Assembly (NCBI GenBank): GCA_019058315.1
Contig: JAHPZH010000001.1
Coordinates: 279,436-343,435, forward strand
DNA: 64,000 nucleotides
Source of the DNA: Candidatus Helarchaeota archaeon
Lineage (GTDB): Archaea > Asgardarchaeota > Lokiarchaeia > Helarchaeales > RDOG01
Reading direction: 5' to 3'
Shown: piece after piece, positions 30,989-43,784 of the stretch
Numbering within the stretch: the first letter of the stretch is position 1
How the letters are laid out: the number at the start of each line of letters is the position of its first letter
Notes under the pieces: model-generated
Database searches by the model: none
Seen by the model: only the letters and a program-made list of their open reading frames with translations
Told to the model about the DNA's origin: nothing
Made by a program: the position numbers and the translations under genes

Positions 30989-31639
30989 TTGGTGAATCCC
31001 TTGAGCATTGATGAAGAAATAAGTCAAAAAATTCAAAAAAACATAGAAATCATTAAAAAATATATGCTTGAAGAAATAAAATTAGCACTGAAACACTCTG
31101 GGGAGTATATTAGGAAGAATATGCCAACTTATGAAGCTGCTTATCAATTATTGGTTGGTCCAGATGAAGAAGAACGTTCTATACATCAAATTAATTTAAT
31201 ATTAGAATGTGCTGCTAAATTAAAATCCGATCAGTCGAATATTGAAGAATTAATTGAAGAGACTTTTAAAAAATATTTAAGAAATGATAATCTAGGTTAT
31301 AACATGCGTAAAAAGCATAGAAAAACAGCAGAGGCTTCCGAACTTATTAAAGAGATGTTTAAAAATCATGTTATTAGTTTCTCTAAACTTCTCAGAGGAG
31401 ATGGCGAAACTTATGATGATCTTTCTAGAACGGTAAGTCCAACTTATGAAGAAGCAATTGAGTATGTTAATAAAGAGATTGAAATATCTAAGAAGATTTC
31501 AGACTTGATTCGTAATGATAGAGGGATAATAAATGCACCTGGTTATTTTCGTTATGATATAATGTTAGCAATTTTAGATATAGCTGAGTATGGAAATAAT
31601 AGATTGATAGAAGAAACAAAAAGAATTTATAATAAATAG
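30989..31639 (+). CDS. Hypothetical alpha-helical protein
   Basis: 216-aa ORF in a co-oriented gene run. Confidence 0.65.
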   Translation: MVNPLSIDEEISQKIQKNIEIIKKYMLEEIKLALKHSGEYIRKNMPTYEAAYQLLVGPDEEERSIHQINLILECAAKLKSDQSNIEELIEETFKKYLRNDNLGYNMRKKHRKTAEASELIKEMFKNHVISFSKLLRGDGETYDDLSRTVSPTYEEAIEYVNKEIEISKKISDLIRNDRGIINAPGYFRYDIMLAILDIAEYGNNRLIEETKRIYNK

Positions 31640-32150: not shown

Positions 32151-32197
32151 TAAATAAAATTACTTTATGATCTTGAATATCATGTGGAGGGTTTTAA

Positions 32198-32656
32198 ATG
32201 GTTATTATAAGAAACGCGAAATTTCCAGAAGATTTAATGGAAATTTATGAAATTGAGCAAAATGCATTTGAAAATGATGGTTATTCTATTTATTTTATAA
32301 CTCAAGCTTTAGAATTTTTATCAAATTCGATTTTTGTTGCTGAAGAAAATAATAAGTTAGTTGGTTATATTTTAGGCGCATTAGATCAAAAAGATGGCAA
32401 TCTTGGCTGGTTTTTGAATATTGCTGTTATGAAGGGAAACCAAGGTAAAGGTATTGGATATAAATTACTCGAAAAACTTATGGATTTTTTTAAAGAATCA
32501 AAATGCAAAGAAGTGCATCTCACAGTTGCCCCAAATTATTCACCCGGAATACATTTATATGAAAAATTTGACTTTAAAAAAACCAAAATAATAAAAAATT
32601 ATTTTGGCAAAGGGCAAGATCGGCTTTTAATGATTAGGGATTTAAGTACTGTTTAA
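32198..32656 (+). CDS. GNAT N-acetyltransferase (RimI-like)
   Basis: NIAV..NQGKGIGYKL, LTV..N..GIHLYEKFDF, KNYF; ggagg SD. Confidence 0.9.
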   Translation: MVIIRNAKFPEDLMEIYEIEQNAFENDGYSIYFITQALEFLSNSIFVAEENNKLVGYILGALDQKDGNLGWFLNIAVMKGNQGKGIGYKLLEKLMDFFKESKCKEVHLTVAPNYSPGIHLYEKFDFKKTKIIKNYFGKGQDRLLMIRDLSTV

Positions 32657-32694
32657 ATTGGATAATTTGACTGTTAAGAAAAGAGGTTGTTTAA

Positions 32695-35439
32695 ATGGAA
32701 GAAAAAGAGACTAAATTTAATGAATATCTTATTTTATTAGATGATAAGAAGAAAGATTATACTAGAATTTACGACTTAATAAGAGGTTGGGAAGAAACTG
32801 TATGGACTGGGTTAACTTTAGGCAGGTTTGATATTGTTGCAAAAATAAATTTGCCTGTATCAATTAATATTACGGATTTCCTATATGATGAAATTCATGC
32901 TCTTTTCCCTGAATCTGATATCTATTTAAAAATTTTTAAAATTACAGACGAAGTGTTCAGACAAGATAAGAGCAAGATTGGGAATTATAACATAATAGGA
33001 ACTACTCTTATACATCTAATTTTTGATAAAGTTGAAAAAAATGAAAAATTAATAAATTTCAAAAAGAGATTATTTAAACAACAAGTCAAAGATATCCCAA
33101 AAATAATTGAATTCGTTGAAATTAATGAACAAATATTGACTCCCAAACAAGATATGGGTAAATATATTCCAGAATTATTAAAATTATCTGATTTTAACCT
33201 TATAGATGATTTAACTCCAATTGATGAATTTTCTGCGGACACAAATCAAATATATCAAAGCTTTAATTTTGCATATCTTTTCAATGTAAATGAAATCGAA
33301 GAAGTAAATGAGATAATTAAGTCCTTAAGCAGATTAACTGAAGAGTTTAACATTGAAATGGCCGATACGGAGAGTATGATTTGGTCCAAAGAATGGTTAC
33401 AAGAGATCGAGTTTGAGAAATATTCAGCATTTGGGAATCATTTTGTTATAATAGATGAACGTTCAAAATGGCCTTTAATTCCAGAAGGAATGAAATCCTT
33501 TTTTGCTGTTCATGCAAATGACTTTTACTTTGGTGTAGGTAGCAATGATATATTATTCATACAACCACCCGAACTAGAATTAATTGCATATTTGGTTACT
33601 AGAAATAAGATTAGAGATTATCTGGTCTCAAATGTTAATAATTTTTGGCAGAATAATTTAAAAATTAACTTTCTTGCCACATTAGAAAGTAATTTTAAAA
33701 TTGCACTATATAATACTCCATTACTGAGTCTAATTGTAAATTTACTAACAATGAAGCCAAAAAAAGATATTGATATTGAAGATAGTTCTCAATATCTAAT
33801 TAGAAGCTCTAAAATTTATGGCGTTATAATCGAAGTTTTACAAAATATTCTACAAGATATCCTATTAAATTATAAACGTAATTTAAAGATATCTGCAGAG
33901 AAATATAAACATTTAGAGAAGCTAACTCCGAACGAGATTTTTCCCATCAATAGATACAAAGAATTTATTGAAATTTTAAAAAATAAGTTTAAAGAGGTGC
34001 TAAGAACCGTAAAGATGAATGATGTGGATGTAATTATGAGGATTATCGAAAGGGATGGTTCTGAAGCAGATATGTGTGGAAATGGAATAAGATGTGTAGC
34101 TGATTATCTCTTTAAAAATCCTATCCAAACTCTTGATGGGCAATTAAAACCATCTGAAAAACTTATTGTCCTTACAGAAACAGTTAATGACGATTTTATT
34201 CCAAGAGAGATAAGGAAGAGTGTAAAAGGAGAATACATTGTCAATATGAATGAATTGAAACCTGTAAATAGTATTTATTATACGGTAGTGAATAAAGGAA
34301 CCCATTTAAAATATCTCGATAAAGATTCCCCTATTTTTTTAATACGTATTCCTGTAATTAAGAAATATAATCCTAAAGCTTCTAAAAATTATTCGTTAAA
34401 CTATCCGATAATTGAATGGCATTGTAGAACTACAGATTCTGAAGATGAAGATTATGGTATATATGGTCTATATTTGGCTTTTGGAGAACCACATTTAGTA
34501 TTTTTCTCTGATGAAATAATAGAAGGTAAAAAATCATCTAATATCAATAAAATTTTAAATTATTTATGGAATATGGGACCTCTTGTCAAATCGACCGTGG
34601 AAAATATCGATACAGATTCAAAACAAGTAGAGGAAAAAAGTGATAAAATAGACTTTTTAGCACTTCCAAGCATAGAAACAAGCGCTGAGGATGTAATGTC
34701 CTTAATTTATGCACTTGGAGATTGGGGGAATATATCTTCTGAGAAATTTGGTGAGGTTTTTACTGTTAAAAGTAAAAATATCCAGCCTGGAATGACTTTC
34801 TCAAGAAATGTTGCCATTAAACAAGAAGAAGGAAAAATAATTTATGATATGATTGATCGAGCAGGTGTTAATGTTAATTTAATTACCTTAAGAAGTATCA
34901 GAAAACCAAAACCCGAAACATCTGCCCAATATTATTATGAATTGAATCAATTAGTATACGAACGTGGGATGGGAGCCTCTCCAATAACTCTGGCATGTGG
35001 GACAGGAATGACATCATCTGCTGTTGCTCTATATGAATTATTTAAAAAAATGGCTGAAATGTTCAACTCCTCTGATTTACCTGAAGAAATAAAAGAATTA
35101 ATAAAAAATTTCAATCTAGAGGTCGTTAAACCAGGATATGGCATTAACGATAATGATTCTGTAACATTTCCAGTCATCCCTTTGGGTTCAAAATATAATT
35201 TTTCTGAAGATGTTACTAATTTACCAACGGCAAGTTTCGGTAGAGTATTTTCTTCATATATTAATGAAATCTGTATGAGATCCACGCTGGGGGCTAAACA
35301 ACCCTACCATAATGTAGATTTTGGAGAATTTGGTAGAGTAAATATTGAAGTAACTGAAAAAAAAGATTTGGTTGAAGCAAAAATGATAGGTATAGCATCC
35401 CATGTTTATCGGGGGCGATTGATAAGATCTTCGTTATAG
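32695..35439 (+). CDS. Giant DapF-family (two-cysteine) epimerase/racemase with N-terminal Lrp/AsnC RAM-like domains and large insertions
   Basis: FEKYSAFGNHFVIID, GVGSNDILFI, MRIIERDGSEADMCGNGIRCVA, GEPHLVFF, GVNVN, YERG..TLACGTG, MIGIASHVYRG; N-terminal LGRFDIVAKI RAM-like motif. Confidence 0.8.
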   Translation: MEEKETKFNEYLILLDDKKKDYTRIYDLIRGWEETVWTGLTLGRFDIVAKINLPVSINITDFLYDEIHALFPESDIYLKIFKITDEVFRQDKSKIGNYNIIGTTLIHLIFDKVEKNEKLINFKKRLFKQQVKDIPKIIEFVEINEQILTPKQDMGKYIPELLKLSDFNLIDDLTPIDEFSADTNQIYQSFNFAYLFNVNEIEEVNEIIKSLSRLTEEFNIEMADTESMIWSKEWLQEIEFEKYSAFGNHFVIIDERSKWPLIPEGMKSFFAVHANDFYFGVGSNDILFIQPPELELIAYLVTRNKIRDYLVSNVNNFWQNNLKINFLATLESNFKIALYNTPLLSLIVNLLTMKPKKDIDIEDSSQYLIRSSKIYGVIIEVLQNILQDILLNYKRNLKISAEKYKHLEKLTPNEIFPINRYKEFIEILKNKFKEVLRTVKMNDVDVIMRIIERDGSEADMCGNGIRCVADYLFKNPIQTLDGQLKPSEKLIVLTETVNDDFIPREIRKSVKGEYIVNMNELKPVNSIYYTVVNKGTHLKYLDKDSPIFLIRIPVIKKYNPKASKNYSLNYPIIEWHCRTTDSEDEDYGIYGLYLAFGEPHLVFFSDEIIEGKKSSNINKILNYLWNMGPLVKSTVENIDTDSKQVEEKSDKIDFLALPSIETSAEDVMSLIYALGDWGNISSEKFGEVFTVKSKNIQPGMTFSRNVAIKQEEGKIIYDMIDRAGVNVNLITLRSIRKPKPETSAQYYYELNQLVYERGMGASPITLACGTGMTSSAVALYELFKKMAEMFNSSDLPEEIKELIKNFNLEVVKPGYGINDNDSVTFPVIPLGSKYNFSEDVTNLPTASFGRVFSSYINEICMRSTLGAKQPYHNVDFGEFGRVNIEVTEKKDLVEAKMIGIASHVYRGRLIRSSL

Positions 35440-37125
35440 TTGGTGGGTATGATGATATTTAGAAAGAATTTATATGTAGCAGCAATGGGTGCCGTCGGTT
35501 CTGGAAAAAGTTCGTTTTTGGGTCAGTACTTCATTAAATCGAAGGCGATCGACGATTACGAATTAAATTATTTAGAGGATATTGTCAGAAAGGAGTACAA
35601 AGATGAAGCGGAAATAAAGAAGAACTTATTATTAGAGATATTTAGATCGCAAGAGATTGATCCAATAAAAAGGCAAAAAAAACGAAAATATGAAATTTCA
35701 AGCTTAGATTCAAAAATATCTGCATATACTATGGATATATCCTCATTAAGAGCACAACTATCCTATATCAATCATGAAATTGAAAATAAAAAAGATAGAA
35801 TTTTATCTTCTGATAAACAAGAATTAGACTCTATTATAACAAAGCTTCAGAATGATTTAAAGGTAAAATCTGGAAAATTGAACACTTTAAAGGATATTCA
35901 AGATAAACAATCCATAATTGTTAGTTATAGAAAAGATATTACCGAAGCTGCAGATTTACCAATGAGAATCTGGAAAGATGTTATTTTTATTGATGTACTT
36001 GGAACTTCACAACACCTTAAAAGTCTAATAAATGAGTCCACATTTTTAGATATAGCAATTATTGTTATAGATATTACAAATTTTCAAAATCAATTAGATT
36101 TACAAACATCAGGAGAAATTTTGCAAAATGGAATTATTGCAAAGATTTTTGGAGCGAAAAAAATTATATTAGTAATTAATAAGCTTGATAAAGTTGATTA
36201 TTCAGAAAAAAAATATCTTGAATGTAAAAAAGATGTCCAATTTAGGTTATCAGAATATTGTGGGATTAGCAAAGATCAACTAATAGCTATTCCAATTAAT
36301 TCTCTTGATGGTGAAAATATTATTCAAAAAAGCGATAAACTAAGTTGGTATTATGAAAAAGACGAATATCCATTAAATTTTCATGAAGTTTTAGAAGTCG
36401 AATTGCAAGAATTACGTAAATTAAAAGAGATAAACACATCTAAATTAAAAGATGAGGATTCTTTGATATTTTATGTGAATGATATATCTAAGGATGAATT
36501 AGGCGTAATTGGATATTTACAATATGGAACAATTACTCGTGAAAAAGATTATGTAACATTCCTTCCACCAATATCAGAAGAAGAATCTTATAAATTCTTA
36601 ATAGACAAAATTTTAACTTACCAAGGAGAAAATATATTAAATTTTACTCCAACAGATTCAATCGTTGCCGAAAAATATCCTGTTAAATTGTTATTGGGAA
36701 GTATTCAAAAAGAATACCTCTCGGAAATTAAAAAGGGAATGATTATTACAAAATATCATTCTGATGGAAAATATCCTAATTTAACATGGGCTAATAAGTT
36801 TATTGGGACACTTTATATAATATATCATCCCACTCCTATCGGGATGAGAACAACTTCTAATTTAATACATCATACATTTAATACAACATGTTTCTTCCAC
36901 CAATTCATGACAAGTAAAAATAATATTATTCAAAATGTAGGTACTAATGAATCTGTTAAATTTTGGTTGGAAACACAAAATACAATCCCACTATTAAAAA
37001 CAAAAAATATCAAAGGAAAGGATAATTTTGGGCACTTTATCCTTTATGAAGGTCAAAGAGCAATGGGTGTAGGAATATTCGAAGAAATAATTGGTAATTG
37101 GGATTTCGAACCTCTCAATTGGTAA
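35440..37125 (+). CDS. Divergent EF-1alpha-like translational GTPase (probable start ATG 35449 or 35452)
   Basis: GAVGSGKS, YTMDIS, DVLGT, NKLD, PINSLDGENI; domain III FIGTLYIIYHPTPI..HTFNTTCFF and FGHFILYEGQRAMGVG. Confidence 0.82.
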   Translation: MVGMMIFRKNLYVAAMGAVGSGKSSFLGQYFIKSKAIDDYELNYLEDIVRKEYKDEAEIKKNLLLEIFRSQEIDPIKRQKKRKYEISSLDSKISAYTMDISSLRAQLSYINHEIENKKDRILSSDKQELDSIITKLQNDLKVKSGKLNTLKDIQDKQSIIVSYRKDITEAADLPMRIWKDVIFIDVLGTSQHLKSLINESTFLDIAIIVIDITNFQNQLDLQTSGEILQNGIIAKIFGAKKIILVINKLDKVDYSEKKYLECKKDVQFRLSEYCGISKDQLIAIPINSLDGENIIQKSDKLSWYYEKDEYPLNFHEVLEVELQELRKLKEINTSKLKDEDSLIFYVNDISKDELGVIGYLQYGTITREKDYVTFLPPISEEESYKFLIDKILTYQGENILNFTPTDSIVAEKYPVKLLLGSIQKEYLSEIKKGMIITKYHSDGKYPNLTWANKFIGTLYIIYHPTPIGMRTTSNLIHHTFNTTCFFHQFMTSKNNIIQNVGTNESVKFWLETQNTIPLLKTKNIKGKDNFGHFILYEGQRAMGVGIFEEIIGNWDFEPLNW

Positions 37126-37137
37126 ATATTTATTTAA

Positions 37138-40100
37138 TTATTTCTTAATATATTGGATTACTGCATCTAATCCTTTTTCATAAATATCTTTATCTTCTTC
37201 TAATAACGGATTATTTTCAAGTTCTAATATTCGTAATTCAGAAATATTCTTCAATCCCTCTATTTTATTAATCTGATTATTAGAAAGCTTTAACTCTATT
37301 AAATTTAAAAGCGTTTCTAAACCTTCTATCTTTCTAATATTATTCCCTAAAAGATTTAATATCTGTAATTGTGCGAGTTTCTGAAGCCCCTCAATTTTAG
37401 ATATTTGATTATTATCAAGGGATAATGATACTAATTGAGAGAGATTATCTAACTTTTCTATTTTTGAAATCTTATTTTGATTCAAATTTAGATTTTCTAA
37501 ATATAAAAGCGTTTCTAAACCTTCTATCTTTTGAATTTTATTATTATATAAAAATAAATCTCTTAAATCCATGAGTTCTTCTAAATTCTCTATTTTTATA
37601 ATTTCATTATCATTAAGGCATAATACTTGCAATATGGAGGAGCAACCTTTTAATCCCTCAATCTTCTTTATCTTATTCGTCTCAAGATTTAATATTAATA
37701 ATTGAGAAAGGATTTCTAAGTTTTCTATTAGCATAATTTGATTAGCCTTCAGATCTAATTGATTTAATTGAGAAAGATTATCCAATCCTTCTATCTTTGA
37801 AATTTTATTATTCGATAAGATTAATTCATTTAATTCAGTTAACTTTTCCAAATTTTCTAATTTTTCTATAAAATTTACTGAAATGTCTAAATGTTTTAAC
37901 TTTAAAAGAGTATCCAAGTTCTCTATCTTTCTAATATTATTTCCCGAAAGATATAATACCTCTAATTGTATGAGTTTCTGAAGCCCCTGAATTTTAGATA
38001 TTTGATTATTACTAAGGGATAATGATATTAATTGAAAGAGATTATCTAAATTTTCTATTTTTTTTATCATATTTTGTTCCAAATATAGCAATTCTAAGTT
38101 TAAAAGAGTTTCTAAACCTTCTATCTTTTGAATTTTATTATTCTCTAAATATATATCTATTAAATTTATAAGCTCCTCTAAATTCTCTATTTTTAAAATT
38201 AGATTTTCACTAATGGATAATACTTTCAATCTGTAGAGTCCTTTTAATCCCTCAATCTTCTTTATCTTATTCTTATCAAGATCTAATATTTGTAAATGAG
38301 AAAGGTTTTCTAAGTTCTCTATCAACACAATCTGATTATCCTTAAGAACTAATCTCCATAATTGAGAAAGATTATCCAATCCTTCAATCTTTGAAATTTT
38401 ATTGTTCGATATAAGTAATTCATTTAATTCTGATAGCTTTTCCAGATTTTCTAATTTTTCTATAAAATTCAGTGAAATGTTTAAACCTTTTAACTTTGAA
38501 AGATTATCCAAGTTTTCTAGTTTTCTGATATTATTATGGTCAAGATATAATCGCTTTAATTGTGAAAGTCCCTCTAATCCCTCTATCTTTGTGATTTGAT
38601 TGTATGATAAAACTAATTCCTTTAATTGTGAGAGTCTTTCTAACCCTTCAATTCTTATGATTTCATTCCTAGAAAGACCTAATGATCTCAATTGTAATAA
38701 TTTCTCTAATCCCTCAATTTTCGTGATCTTGTTATTACTCAAATATAATTTATGTAATTGTGAAAGGTCCTCTAATCCTTGTATTTTCTTAATCTTATTA
38801 TTAGATAGATGTAATACCTTTAATTGTGAAAGCTTCTCTAATCCCTCTATTTCAATAATTTGATTGTTAAAAAGATATAAATTTTGTAATTTGAAGTTAT
38901 TCTCTAACTCCTCAATTTTTGTAATCTTGTTTTTACGTAAAAATAAATCTTTTAAATTATAAAGCTTCTCTAATCCTTCAATCTTCTCGATCCTATTGTT
39001 ATCAAGATCTAATATTTGTAAATGAGAAAGGTTTTCTAATCCCTCAATCTTATTCAATTTATTCCCCATTAGTTCTAATATTTTTAATTGATTGAGGTTC
39101 TCTAACCCCTCTATTTTCTTAATCTTGTTTTGAGAAAGATACAATTCTTGTAATTGCGTAAGTTTCTCTAATCCTTCAATTTCACTTATATTATTCGCTC
39201 TAATATCTAATATTTGTAATTGTGAGAGCCCTTCTAATCCCTCTATCTTTGAAATTTTATTAAAAGTAAGAGTGATTTTATTTAATTTTGAAAGTCCATT
39301 TAATCCTCTAATTTTCGTAATTTGGTTACCAGAAAGGTCTAATTCCCGTAAATGAGATAAATTACTTATAAAACTTGGAATTTTTTTTAATTTATTATTA
39401 AATATACCAAGAAATATTATATTTCCATCTTTAACTTTAACATCAACAAAATAAAGGTCAAAACCTTTTAAAACCTGGAAATGGGAATTTATTGAAACAT
39501 TTTCTCCCAACTTTACCAGAGCTGCGACTGCAGGGAATCTCACATCTTCATCTTCTTCAATTTCAAGTATTTTCAATAAGTATTTTTGAACAATTATGTT
39601 ATCAATGAAATCAGAATACCATTTTTCTGTCTGAAAATCCAGTAATGCTTTTATTTGAAAATAGATCTGTGGATTAAACTCATCTTCATTATTTTTTTCA
39701 ATAAGGCGGAGTATAATTGCTTTAATCTCTTCTAGGCGATATTCTAATATCTTTTCTGATGCAATACCCGCAGAAATTATATTATTTAATGCTTGATATA
39801 CAATATTATAATCAAAACTCATAAATGTAGGGGTTTGTTCTGTAAAAAAATGGTCTAAATTTTGAATTGTTGCTAATAATTCGTCTTTAGGTGATAATTT
39901 CATACGTTCAGTATTCTGAGGTTCTAATTCAGGGTTATATTCTACAACAATCTTATAACAGGTAATTTTTTTCAGAATCCTTTCTATATTATCTTTTTTT
40001 ACATAAAGTCTGAGCTCAAATTGGGGGTTACAAATTAAAGCAAATCTCGCTTCTAACTCTTCATCTTCCCAAAATGCAGGAGATAAAATATATAAGTCTC

Positions 40101-40284
40101 TTTTTATTTTTGAAATTCTCCATCTTGTATCTGTCCAGTATTTAAAAATTATTGGTTCATCTAAGTCCTCATCATAATATTCAAATTCCCCTAATTTTGT
40201 TAAATTATCCTGAAATACTGGATCTTCTATAAACTTTTCAAACCAGGTCGTCTGATCCTTTTCTTTTGACATAATTGGTTTCAT
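37138..40284 (-). CDS. Large SDS22-like leucine-rich repeat protein (about 33 LRRs) with unknown N-terminal domain
   Basis: 22-aa repeats L..L.L..N.I.KIEGLE.L; cap LENNPL..IYEKGLDAVIQYI. Confidence 0.93.
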   Translation of the reverse strand: MKPIMSKEKDQTTWFEKFIEDPVFQDNLTKLGEFEYYDEDLDEPIIFKYWTDTRWRISKIKRDLYILSPAFWEDEELEARFALICNPQFELRLYVKKDNIERILKKITCYKIVVEYNPELEPQNTERMKLSPKDELLATIQNLDHFFTEQTPTFMSFDYNIVYQALNNIISAGIASEKILEYRLEEIKAIILRLIEKNNEDEFNPQIYFQIKALLDFQTEKWYSDFIDNIIVQKYLLKILEIEEDEDVRFPAVAALVKLGENVSINSHFQVLKGFDLYFVDVKVKDGNIIFLGIFNNKLKKIPSFISNLSHLRELDLSGNQITKIRGLNGLSKLNKITLTFNKISKIEGLEGLSQLQILDIRANNISEIEGLEKLTQLQELYLSQNKIKKIEGLENLNQLKILELMGNKLNKIEGLENLSHLQILDLDNNRIEKIEGLEKLYNLKDLFLRKNKITKIEELENNFKLQNLYLFNNQIIEIEGLEKLSQLKVLHLSNNKIKKIQGLEDLSQLHKLYLSNNKITKIEGLEKLLQLRSLGLSRNEIIRIEGLERLSQLKELVLSYNQITKIEGLEGLSQLKRLYLDHNNIRKLENLDNLSKLKGLNISLNFIEKLENLEKLSELNELLISNNKISKIEGLDNLSQLWRLVLKDNQIVLIENLENLSHLQILDLDKNKIKKIEGLKGLYRLKVLSISENLILKIENLEELINLIDIYLENNKIQKIEGLETLLNLELLYLEQNMIKKIENLDNLFQLISLSLSNNQISKIQGLQKLIQLEVLYLSGNNIRKIENLDTLLKLKHLDISVNFIEKLENLEKLTELNELILSNNKISKIEGLDNLSQLNQLDLKANQIMLIENLEILSQLLILNLETNKIKKIEGLKGCSSILQVLCLNDNEIIKIENLEELMDLRDLFLYNNKIQKIEGLETLLYLENLNLNQNKISKIEKLDNLSQLVSLSLDNNQISKIEGLQKLAQLQILNLLGNNIRKIEGLETLLNLIELKLSNNQINKIEGLKNISELRILELENNPLLEEDKDIYEKGLDAVIQYIKK
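37320..38550. repeat. Higher-order tandem duplication of a nine-LRR cassette (594-597 bp period)
   Basis: NFIEKLENLEKL.ELNEL..SNNKISKIEGLDNLSQL and NNKIQKIEGLETLL each recur about 198 aa apart with matching DNA. Confidence 0.85.
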
Positions 40285-42146: not shown

Positions 42147-43784
42147 CTATTTTTCTTGAAGATATAAGACTAGAAAGCCTATTGCTATCGCAATACCTAT
42201 TACTAATCCAAAGATAAGTAGTGAATATGATGGTTGTTCTAGAAATAGTAATAGAAATAATCCCCAATTAAATGGTTTTGGTTGATAATTTATTATCTTT
42301 TGAGCAAATATATCATAGTTAGCATTTCTAGTATCATACCAAGTGACAATTGCACCATCTGAACCACCACAGCAAAGCTTGGGATTAGATGCATAACCTC
42401 CTAATGCAGATATTACTGCTCCCTTCGATCCCCATTGTATATTGCCTTCCGAACTTACTAACTGTCCATAAATGTCTGTCGGGAGTGCTAATATATGGAT
42501 GCCTGAAATAGATAGCGACTCCGTAGCTCTTGTATCTCTCCAACATATGAATGCCCCCCCATTTCCATTGCAACAAATTTCAGGAACCATTTGTGATCCT
42601 ATTGCATTACATATAACTGTACCATTTATTTCCCACTGGGTATGTCCGCTTGAATTTACCTTTTGTGCATATATATCATCTTTTGCTGTTCCAGTTCTAT
42701 TCTTATCTTGCCAAGTAATAATAGCCCCACCTACCCCATCAGAACATAGTTTGGGCTCTGATTGTAGGTATTCTGCATTACATATAACAGTTCCGTTTAT
42801 GTCCCACTTAACTGCTCCAGTTGAATTAATTTTTTGTGCATAAATTCCATCATCTGCGCCCCTATCGTCAAACCAAGTAATTATCGCACCCCCAGATTCG
42901 TCTCGGCATATTTGGAGATCTTTCTGTTCTTCCTCTGCATTACATATAAGTGTTCCATTAGTTACCCATTGTGTTCCACTTGAATTGATTTTTTGTACAT
43001 AAATATCACCTAAAACACCACCAATTCTTTCGTCTTTCCAAGCGATTATTGCACCTCCTGCTCCATCACTACAAATTTGAGGGTCAATTTGATCATAATT
43101 TTCGTTACAAATTACAGTTCCATTTGCTCCCCATTGTATACCACTTGAATTAACATATTGTGCATAAATATCAGAATATGTCCCATTCCTGTTATCTTCC
43201 CAAGTTATTATTGCACCTCCCAAATCGTCACAACAAATTTTGGGGTTCTCTTGGGTATTTTCTGCATTACATATAACCGTTCCATTTGGATCCCAAAGTA
43301 ACAATCCTTGAGAATTAATATTTTGAGCATAAATATCATAATTTCCATTTCTGTAATCCTTCCAAGTAATTATTGCACCTCCATCTCCATCATTACAAAT
43401 TTCAGGCAGCATTTGATTTGAATCAGCATTACATATTATTAATCCATTTAGTGTCCATTGTATTTGTCCTTTTGAATCAATTTTTTGTGCATATATATCG
43501 TATTCTGCCAATCCTGACCGATTATAATCTTGCCAAACGATAATTGCACTATTATTTTCATCGCAGCAGATTTGTGGTGCCAATTGAGAATAAGGTTCTG
43601 TGCAAATTTCAATATCACTACTACCCCATACTTTTTTACATATTCCACTTGAAGTAACGAAGTTATTTTTTGCATTTAAATTGTTTAATATATCCAGATT
43701 GCTAGTAGAACCAATTGTATTTATGCTTAAAAAGAATATATTTGAAAATATGATTAAAAATATTAACACAAATTTAATTTTCAA
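42147..43784 (-). CDS. Secreted beta-propeller-like repeat protein with C-terminal TM anchor
   Basis: Signal peptide; about seven ~62-aa repeats Q..P.IC.DG.GGAIITW.D.R...DIYAQKI.S.G...W..NG..ICNA; terminal TM. Confidence 0.85.
   Translation of the reverse strand: MKIKFVLIFLIIFSNIFFLSINTIGSTSNLDILNNLNAKNNFVTSSGICKKVWGSSDIEICTEPYSQLAPQICCDENNSAIIVWQDYNRSGLAEYDIYAQKIDSKGQIQWTLNGLIICNADSNQMLPEICNDGDGGAIITWKDYRNGNYDIYAQNINSQGLLLWDPNGTVICNAENTQENPKICCDDLGGAIITWEDNRNGTYSDIYAQYVNSSGIQWGANGTVICNENYDQIDPQICSDGAGGAIIAWKDERIGGVLGDIYVQKINSSGTQWVTNGTLICNAEEEQKDLQICRDESGGAIITWFDDRGADDGIYAQKINSTGAVKWDINGTVICNAEYLQSEPKLCSDGVGGAIITWQDKNRTGTAKDDIYAQKVNSSGHTQWEINGTVICNAIGSQMVPEICCNGNGGAFICWRDTRATESLSISGIHILALPTDIYGQLVSSEGNIQWGSKGAVISALGGYASNPKLCCGGSDGAIVTWYDTRNANYDIFAQKIINYQPKPFNWGLFLLLFLEQPSYSLLIFGLVIGIAIAIGFLVLYLQEK

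Follow-up and report, generated by a model that had tools for sequence, protein, structure and literature searches.

We analyzed a stretch of 64,000 nt, hereafter the window, which covers positions 279,436-343,435 of contig JAHPZH010000001.1 (C3) in a Promethearchaeota (Asgard) assembly of 5.79 Mb, 12 contigs and ~30% GC. In the window, three adjacent genes encode a GNAT acetyltransferase, a 914-aa protein related to the diaminopimelate (DAP) epimerase DapF, and a GTPase related to EF-1alpha. A preliminary description of this locus had proposed that the two large proteins form an undescribed system, possibly an epimerase gated by GTP. The explanation toward which we lean, with modest confidence, is that the DapF-like gene and the GTPase gene are two neofunctionalized paralogs of housekeeping enzymes, probably placed in one transcript and restricted to one lineage, whose products may or may not be coupled.

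Since a canonical dapF (312 bits) and a canonical EF-1alpha gene (653 bits, on C10), together with SelB, aIF2-gamma, and aIF5B, were found elsewhere in the genome, both genes are extra paralogs. The presence of an ordinary EF-1alpha and dapF, which the preliminary description had left to be confirmed, was thereby established.

The open reading frames (ORFs) lie on the + strand at 32198-32656 (GNAT), 32695-35439 (DapF-like), and 35440/35449-37125 (GTPase), in DNA of 27-31% GC. The gap is 38 nt between the GNAT gene and the DapF-like gene, and 0 nt (TTG start) or 9 nt (ATG start) between the DapF-like gene and the GTPase gene; the three co-oriented and tightly spaced genes of the preliminary description were recovered as such. 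The ATG at 35449 is more likely the start of the GTPase, because a Shine-Dalgarno-like GGTGGG, read from the sequence at 35442..35447 (+), lies in the 9-nt spacer ahead of it, and GGAGGT likewise precedes the same ATG-ATG in a sister genome (GCA_048940975.1). The database form of the GTPase (P0005) also begins at this ATG. Shine-Dalgarno-like sequences were found upstream of the other two genes as well: GGAGG at 32186-32190 (+) before the GNAT gene and GAGGT at 32683-32687 (+) before the DapF-like gene. The gene 3' of the GTPase is convergent, thus the string terminates at the GTPase. The three genes probably share one transcript.

The sister genome showed the same gene order across two contigs: hydrolase, WD40, a 209-aa protein, CpXC, GNAT, DapF-like, GTPase, LRR, Asn-synthase-like, and onward. 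The two DapF-like proteins were 84.8% identical, with a ratio of nonsynonymous to synonymous substitution rates (dN/dS) of 0.134 over the whole gene, and the two GTPases were 76.5% identical, with a whole-gene dN/dS of 0.234; the synonymous rate (dS) was ~0.6, and neighboring genes gave dN/dS of 0.085-0.20 in the same comparison. Within the DapF-like gene, dN/dS was 0.017-0.045 in the three catalytic segments and 0.19-0.20 in the inserts and the N-terminus, the N-terminal value being that of the part present in the sister. Indels between strains were in frame, and contigs of related strains from other sediment metagenomes spanned both gene junctions. From dN/dS, the in-frame indels, and the bridging contigs, we concluded that the two genes are functional and constrained, inserts included. 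The opposite explanation, in which they are decaying duplicates or ORFs mis-called in AT-rich DNA and the inserts are junk, would fit the low GC, the low confidence of the inserts and the N-terminus in AlphaFold2 (AF2) models, and the extra regions being without homologues. However, the pseudogene reading was rejected on dN/dS and the in-frame indels, and it also conflicts with the intact catalytic motifs and with both frames being open in two genomes. We regard it as barely credible.

Outside the lineage, no orthologue of either gene was found. A word-indexed search of 5.8 billion proteins with both large genes returned sister orthologues only, and an exhaustive phmmer search of 1.84 billion representatives, made with the DapF-like query, returned as orthologues only two fragments of the sister genome. 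Among 400 Asgard genomes, the remaining matches to the DapF-like query were canonical DapFs of ~300 aa; among 161 genomes of the class, the remaining matches to the GTPase query were canonical EF-1alpha, with 25-33% identity over the G domain. The pairing is restricted to one genus-level lineage, namely two close genomes and related sediment strains. Of the conserved adjacency or fusion in Asgard and other genomes for which the preliminary description had proposed to search, adjacency was seen, and only within this lineage.

The DapF-like protein and its relatives

The DapF-like protein matched Pfam DAP_epimerase (PF01678) with 53.7 bits and the DapF model TIGR00652 with 83.8 bits in three stretches, under the cut-off of 114.65. 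Its AF2 model, made with a 120-row alignment, had a pTM of 0.70 and a core pLDDT of >90, and the two-domain pseudo-symmetric fold of DapF was present in this predicted model. In Foldseek, residues ~238-914 of the model matched the DapF structures 9mro, 1bwz, and 8qzy at E = 1e-11 with target TM of 0.70-0.77; the O-ureidoserine racemase DcsC (7vdy) was also among the fold matches. With these TM values and with both catalytic cysteines present, the assignment of the 914-aa protein to the DapF fold in the preliminary description held. In an alignment to solved DapFs, residues 238-293, 442-472, and 750-779 correspond to DapF residues 3-55 (of PDB 9mro), 56-86, and 209-235.

The protein consists of core segments separated by large inserts, all on the + strand. 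Residues 1-237 (32695..33405) form an orphan N-terminal extension predicted with low confidence by AF2, and its homologue is only the sister fragment P0008. Core segment 1 (residues 238-293; 33406..33573; dN/dS 0.017, pLDDT ~90-95) carries GNHF, with N248 at the position of Asn11 in Hi-DapF. Insert 1 (residues 294-441; 33574..34017; dN/dS 0.19) is helical, with AF2 helices over 294-438, and its site is a hot spot with 30-45 extra residues in the long-form DapF paralogs described below. Core segment 2 (residues 442-480; 34018..34134; dN/dS 0.039) includes E452 at the Asn64 position and MCGNG with Cys461 (codon 34075-34077). Residues 481-749 (34135..34941) make up the remainder of domain 1 and the start of domain 2, with GEPH (E598 at the Asn157 position, and H600), the second large insert at ~606-722, and N726 (Asn190). 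The last part, residues 750-914 with the stop codon (34942..35439; dN/dS 0.045 over 750-790), contains YERG (E756, R757) and TLACGTG with Cys768 (codon 34996-34998). Beyond TLACGTG, the chain continues into a C-terminal insert and then into the last beta-strands of DapF. The big helical inserts that the preliminary description had noticed in both large proteins were reproduced in the AF2 models.

A nine-codon in-frame indel at 34903-34929 (residues 737-745, PKPETSAQY) was polymorphic: the codons were missing from the sister genome and from a related sediment-strain contig (X2). This polymorphism suggests a tolerated loop within the second large insert.

We mapped the active site by the residue roles reported for Hi-DapF (PMC8225329). 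N248, C461, G462, N463, H600, N726, E756, R757, C768, G769, and T770 were kept, so that the reacting-centre set of Hi-DapF (Cys73, Cys217, Asn11, Gly74, Asn75, Gly218, and Ser/Thr219) was complete. In the distal-site set (Asn64, Asn157, Asn190, Arg209, and Glu208), N726, R757, and E756 were kept, and E452 and E598 replaced Asn64 and Asn157; in addition, GNDF was changed to GNHF. Asn64 and Asn157 contact the distal carboxylate of DAP (PMC8225329). Judged by these residues, the protein would most likely catalyze racemization or epimerization of an amino acid, with its two cysteines and without a cofactor. Given Glu at both the Asn64 and the Asn157 positions, activity as a plain DAP epimerase is improbable. 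As these are two of the four residues that hold the distal carboxylate, the substrate is probably an amino acid other than DAP, and its side chain may be nitrogenous or cationic. A changed specificity is a reasonable expectation, since PddB, HisR/CntK, and DcsC are precedents of DapF descendants that act on new substrates.

In the exhaustive phmmer search, long-form DapF-like proteins of 340-430 aa scored above canonical DapFs. They had Glu at the Asn64 and Asn157 positions in 45 and 46 of 52 cases, respectively, and the alignment showed inserts at the same two sites as in the query. In a maximum-likelihood tree, the query pair grouped with 39 long forms (SH-aLRT 98), and the Asgard DapFs clustered in a separate clade within the canonical part of the tree. 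The DapF-like protein falls in the clade of these long Glu/Glu forms, and has their GN(N/H)F signature and both of their insertion sites. We therefore place it within, or as a putative sister to, a mostly bacterial clade, and it would not be the DapF of the lysine pathway; nor is it a recent copy of the Asgard dapF. Relative to this clade, the two insertion hot spots are hugely enlarged and an orphan N-terminal domain of 237 aa is added. Most long forms derive from bacterial metagenome-assembled genomes (MAGs), including Desulfosarcina, Chromatiaceae, Competibacter, Anaerolinea, and Amphritea. Since four of five bacterial genomes with a long form also carried a canonical DapF (246-308 bits), the long form is a paralog; it is annotated as DapF because its scores (97-152 bits) straddle the DapF cut-off. 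We found no characterized member of the long-form clade.

Nine bacterial long-form loci shared, in part or whole, a gene cluster different from the Asgard string (L061-L068 and L113; e.g., L065:5327-13452 and L066:2246-15724). It consists of Cache/HisKA sensor kinases, the DapF-like gene, and then an MFS fusion protein of 560-940 aa with a C-terminal MFS domain, an unknown protein of ~540 aa, and one or two ABC_sub_bind proteins (PF04392). Natural fusions were also observed, in which a long form is joined to a receiver domain (P0020) or to the MFS protein of the cluster (P0023). This cluster may be an uncharacterized module for D-amino-acid sensing or transport. Other long forms adjoined proline racemase, AOR, and aminotransferase genes, or a peptide ABC transporter and a CN-hydrolase.

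For the N-terminal 237 aa, no homologue except the sister was found among the 5.8 billion proteins (shorter class) or in the own genome. The preliminary description had seen RAM-like domains in the giant protein. Pfam AsnC_trans_reg (PF01037) matched residues 15-55 at E = 0.097 (13 bits; cut-off 25), and an hhalign comparison with eight RAM domains encoded in this genome gave a probability of 16.6% (P = 0.0015) with the G-x-D motif in register. The Atlas feature score was 0.78, and the top three matches were all Lrp/AsnC clusters. AF2 predicted the region as all-helical with low confidence; the RAM fold is beta-alpha-beta-beta-alpha-beta. Residues ~10-90 are possibly RAM-like, the signals being weak.

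Open frames of 740 aa and 570 aa with DapF motifs in other Asgard genomes were considered as further giant or fused DapFs and rejected, as they were ordinary LysA-DapF fusions in lysine operons. Such fusions occurred in both domain orders, for example a LysA-DapF of 730 aa (L057:4754-6946, G130) and a DapF-LysA of 555 aa (L058:1458-3125, G197), and the genes adjoined dapA, dapB, asd, aspartokinase, and aminotransferase genes.

The EF-1alpha-like GTPase

The GTPase (35449..37125, +) has 558 aa from the ATG at 35449, with which our residue numbers start. It matched GTP_EFTU with 35 bits, EF-1alpha models with 83-87 bits over residues 181-509 (TIGR00483: 82.8 bits, cut-off 540), and CysN with 62.5 bits. 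By profile, within the genome, and in the PDB, its nearest relatives were archaeal EF-1alpha, followed by eEF1A, eRF3, Hbs1, and CysN; the PDB match to 1jny had 54 bits, and domain 3 of 1jny gave 6.7 bits.

Both orthologues have GAVGSGKS (14-21), DVLG, and NKLD (244-247) as G1, G3, and G4. The G3 region reads DVLGT (182-186) in both, with Thr at the position of the catalytic His of DxPGH. The switch I motif RGITI was without a clear counterpart, RILSSD being at most its equivalent in a MAFFT alignment. An insert of about 110-135 extra residues follows the P-loop (~25-162); AF2 modeled it as a pair of long helices (72-113 and 120-158; pLDDT 60-80). The three-domain order and part of the signature of beta-barrel domain II are kept. 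Domains II and III (~335-558) were weakly recognizable (GTP_EFTU_D3 at E = 0.029, 15 bits versus a cut-off of 27), and domain III was 52% identical to that of the sister. Of the three-domain EF-1alpha-type GTPase described earlier, the family and the G1, G3, and G4 motifs were confirmed, and domains II and III were seen only weakly.

Because the catalytic His is absent, activation of the protein by the ribosome is unlikely. As far as its motifs indicate, it probably binds GTP, would hydrolyze it poorly, and would most likely act off the ribosome. We propose that it is most likely an EF-1alpha-derived switch or adaptor with slow or no hydrolysis.

The GNAT gene and other neighbors

The GNAT gene (32198..32656, +) encodes a RimI-like acetyltransferase of 152 aa matching Pfam PF00583 (Acetyltransf_1) with 67 bits. 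Its score against the RimI model TIGR01575, 78.4 bits, is under the cut-off of 86.4, and the best RimI candidate of the genome lies elsewhere (C7:215531, 95 bits). Thus the GNAT fold of the preliminary description stands, and its likeness to RimI does not reach equivalence. The RimI model had at least 31 GNAT-type matches in the 5.8-Mb genome, an expanded acetyltransferase repertoire. Relatives of the gene in kin genomes were just 29-35% identical, and its position was retained in the sister MAG and in contigs of related strains. Its link to the DapF-like/GTPase pair is no stronger than adjacency.

Two further genes precede the GNAT gene on the same strand: one for an orphan protein of 216 aa (30989-31639, +) and one of CpXC zinc-ribbon type (PF14353; 31656-32150, +). 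The gaps are 16 nt between these two and 47 nt between the CpXC gene and the GNAT gene, and the sister genome (L157) has them in the same order. Judged by this layout, the co-directional string may comprise five genes. The neighbors in the window (DAO oxidoreductase, TPR, ParA/MinD, alpha/beta hydrolase, WD40, CpXC, and LRR) included no identified metabolic or tRNA-related partner, and PADLOC defence models gave zero matches for the three proteins or the orphan neighbors.

An LRR gene of 1048 aa (37138-40284, -) and an orphan gene of 545 aa (42147-43784, -) were missing from the otherwise collinear sister contig L040. By this comparison, they appear to be recent insertions in the genome of the window or deletions in the sister. 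The 545-aa orphan had no Pfam or PADLOC match.

Possible coupling of the two proteins, and known systems

We examined neighborhoods, fusions, and a predicted complex for signs that the DapF-like protein and the GTPase act together. No ORF matching EF-1alpha or EF-Tu profiles was found near any of 14 distinct long-form DapF loci, within flanks of up to 8 kb on each side. When 83 distinct DapF loci were scanned, there was one GTPase match, 4.4 kb from a canonical DapF. No fusion of the two was present among the best 150 matches. Complex prediction with DapF-like residues 238-914 and GTPase residues 1-310, using their own alignments, gave an ipSAE of 0.00, which we take as evidence neither way. 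Among the refuting observations named in the preliminary description was that homologues of the two genes never co-occur in other genomes; as far as neighborhoods are concerned, this is largely what we observed. Its statement that no pairing of DapF with EF-1alpha has been described agreed with our literature search, in which nothing relevant was found.

Direct binding between the two proteins, suggested by the spacing of 9-14 nt, the Shine-Dalgarno-like sequence, and the narrow distribution common to both genes, seems to us less likely than not. One form of it would be a dedicated heteromeric enzyme, where the EF-1alpha paralog, by analogy to CysN with CysD, is a regulatory or adaptor subunit of the racemase dependent on the GTP state, and the lineage-specific helical inserts are the interface. 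The short spacing with a Shine-Dalgarno-like motif conserved in both genomes agrees with this, as do the conservation of the junction between the two genes in a related strain and the fact that both genes are lineage-specific, constrained, and equipped with large helical inserts. Loss of the catalytic His fits a non-translational role, and there are precedents both for EF-1alpha-family subunits or carriers and for a regulatory complex of DapF (RppH-DapF; PMC4227774, PMC6061855). On the other hand, none of the 14 long-form loci has such a partner, kinase, MFS, and ABC_sub_bind genes being the neighbors instead; no fusion is known among the best matches; and the one lineage known to have the pairing is syntenic throughout this neighborhood. 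We consider a dedicated heteromer unlikely. The fuller proposal, a GTP-controlled complex of the two proteins, perhaps gated by an amino-acid-binding N-terminus or acting on a tRNA-bound amino acid, seems to us more doubtful still.

It could also be asked whether the pair acts on tRNA- or peptide-bound amino acids, with the EF-1alpha paralog bringing aminoacyl-tRNA, or else a nascent or peptidyl substrate, to the epimerase so that D-aminoacyl-tRNA is handled or D-residues are installed. The GTPase derives from EF-1alpha, a carrier of aminoacyl-tRNA, and partly keeps the domain II signature. However, the DapF-like protein retains the residues that grip the alpha-carboxylate and alpha-amino group when these are free (G462, N463, G769, T770, and N248; PMC8225329), which argues for a free amino acid rather than an ester or amide. 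Moreover, switch I cannot be recognized in the GTPase and its domains II and III have diverged strongly, the string holds no tRNA-related gene, and the racemase relatives occur without the GTPase. We judge this activity to be highly improbable.

Our explanation remains that of two neofunctionalized paralogs. In support of the preliminary description, both large proteins are extra, diverged, and constrained, and plain DAP epimerase activity is improbable for the DapF-like protein, given E452 and E598. Several observations weigh against our explanation. In 18 of 64 short DapF-like sequences, Val occupies the Asn157 position, and some leftover DAP or DAP-like activity could persist, as the query retains Arg209 and Asn190. 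In the tree, the query sits on a long stem (1.38), and its placement may partly reflect long-branch attraction. The AF2 model of the GTPase, from a 10-row alignment, had a pLDDT of 45, with ~25 and no resolved fold in domains II and III, and its probable GTP binding is based on motifs. With two close genomes only, synteny says little about function, and the sequencing runs listed as carrying this stretch were of sediment DNA, with no RNA run.

If a complex were formed, it would be the first racemase under the control of a GTPase derived from a translation factor, and the EF-1alpha scaffold would again have been drawn out of translation, after CysN, in the archaea closest to eukaryotes. Even without coupling, the DapF-like protein belongs to an uncharacterized paralog clade with a remodeled pocket, whose members are annotated as diaminopimelate epimerase though they stand beside a canonical DapF. 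The finding illustrates the extent to which housekeeping folds have been expanded and remodeled in Asgard archaea, and its value would be limited by its resting on two closely related genomes.

Among known systems, the archaeal EF-1alpha, eRF3, Hbs1, and CysN proteins resemble the GTPase as its top profile or PDB matches, with G1, G3, G4, and the domain order kept. It differs from EF-1alpha and CysN in scoring far under their cut-offs (540 and 336 bits), in the change of His to Thr, and in the unrecognizable switch I and the helical insert. No CysD or PAPS-reductase-type neighbor was found for it in the window, and its CysN score was 62.5 against 336. In the RppH-DapF complex of E. coli, a DapF-fold protein binds and regulates an unrelated enzyme (PMC4227774, PMC6061855, PMC6061791; PDB 6d13 and 6vck), but RppH is a Nudix hydrolase rather than a GTPase, the DapF is canonical, and no adjacency of the genes is involved.

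With DapF itself (TIGR00652; 1bwz, 9mro, and 6d13), the DapF-like protein shares the two-domain fold, both Cys residues, the reacting centre, and the residues His159, Glu208, Arg209, and Asn190, but it is three times larger, with the 237-aa N-terminal extension and inserts of ~400 aa in total, does not reach the cut-off, and has Glu/Glu and GNHF. PddB (2,4-diaminobutyrate), HisR/CntK (histidine), and DcsC (O-ureidoserine) are DapF-derived racemases of other substrates, and in HisR/CntK, Glu residues were proposed to contact the imidazole side chain (PMC8225329, PMC11602996). They are likewise two-Cys enzymes annotated as DapF with a remodeled side-chain pocket, but they are of normal size (~270-320 aa), show no specific sequence grouping with the query, and have other pocket changes; PddB is also without Arg209, which the query keeps. 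From the long-form clade, the query differs by its far larger inserts, the extra N-terminal domain, the long branch, and the GTPase neighbor. With that clade it shares Glu/Glu, GN(N/H)F, and the insertion hot spots, and in both cases the gene is a second copy beside a canonical DapF.

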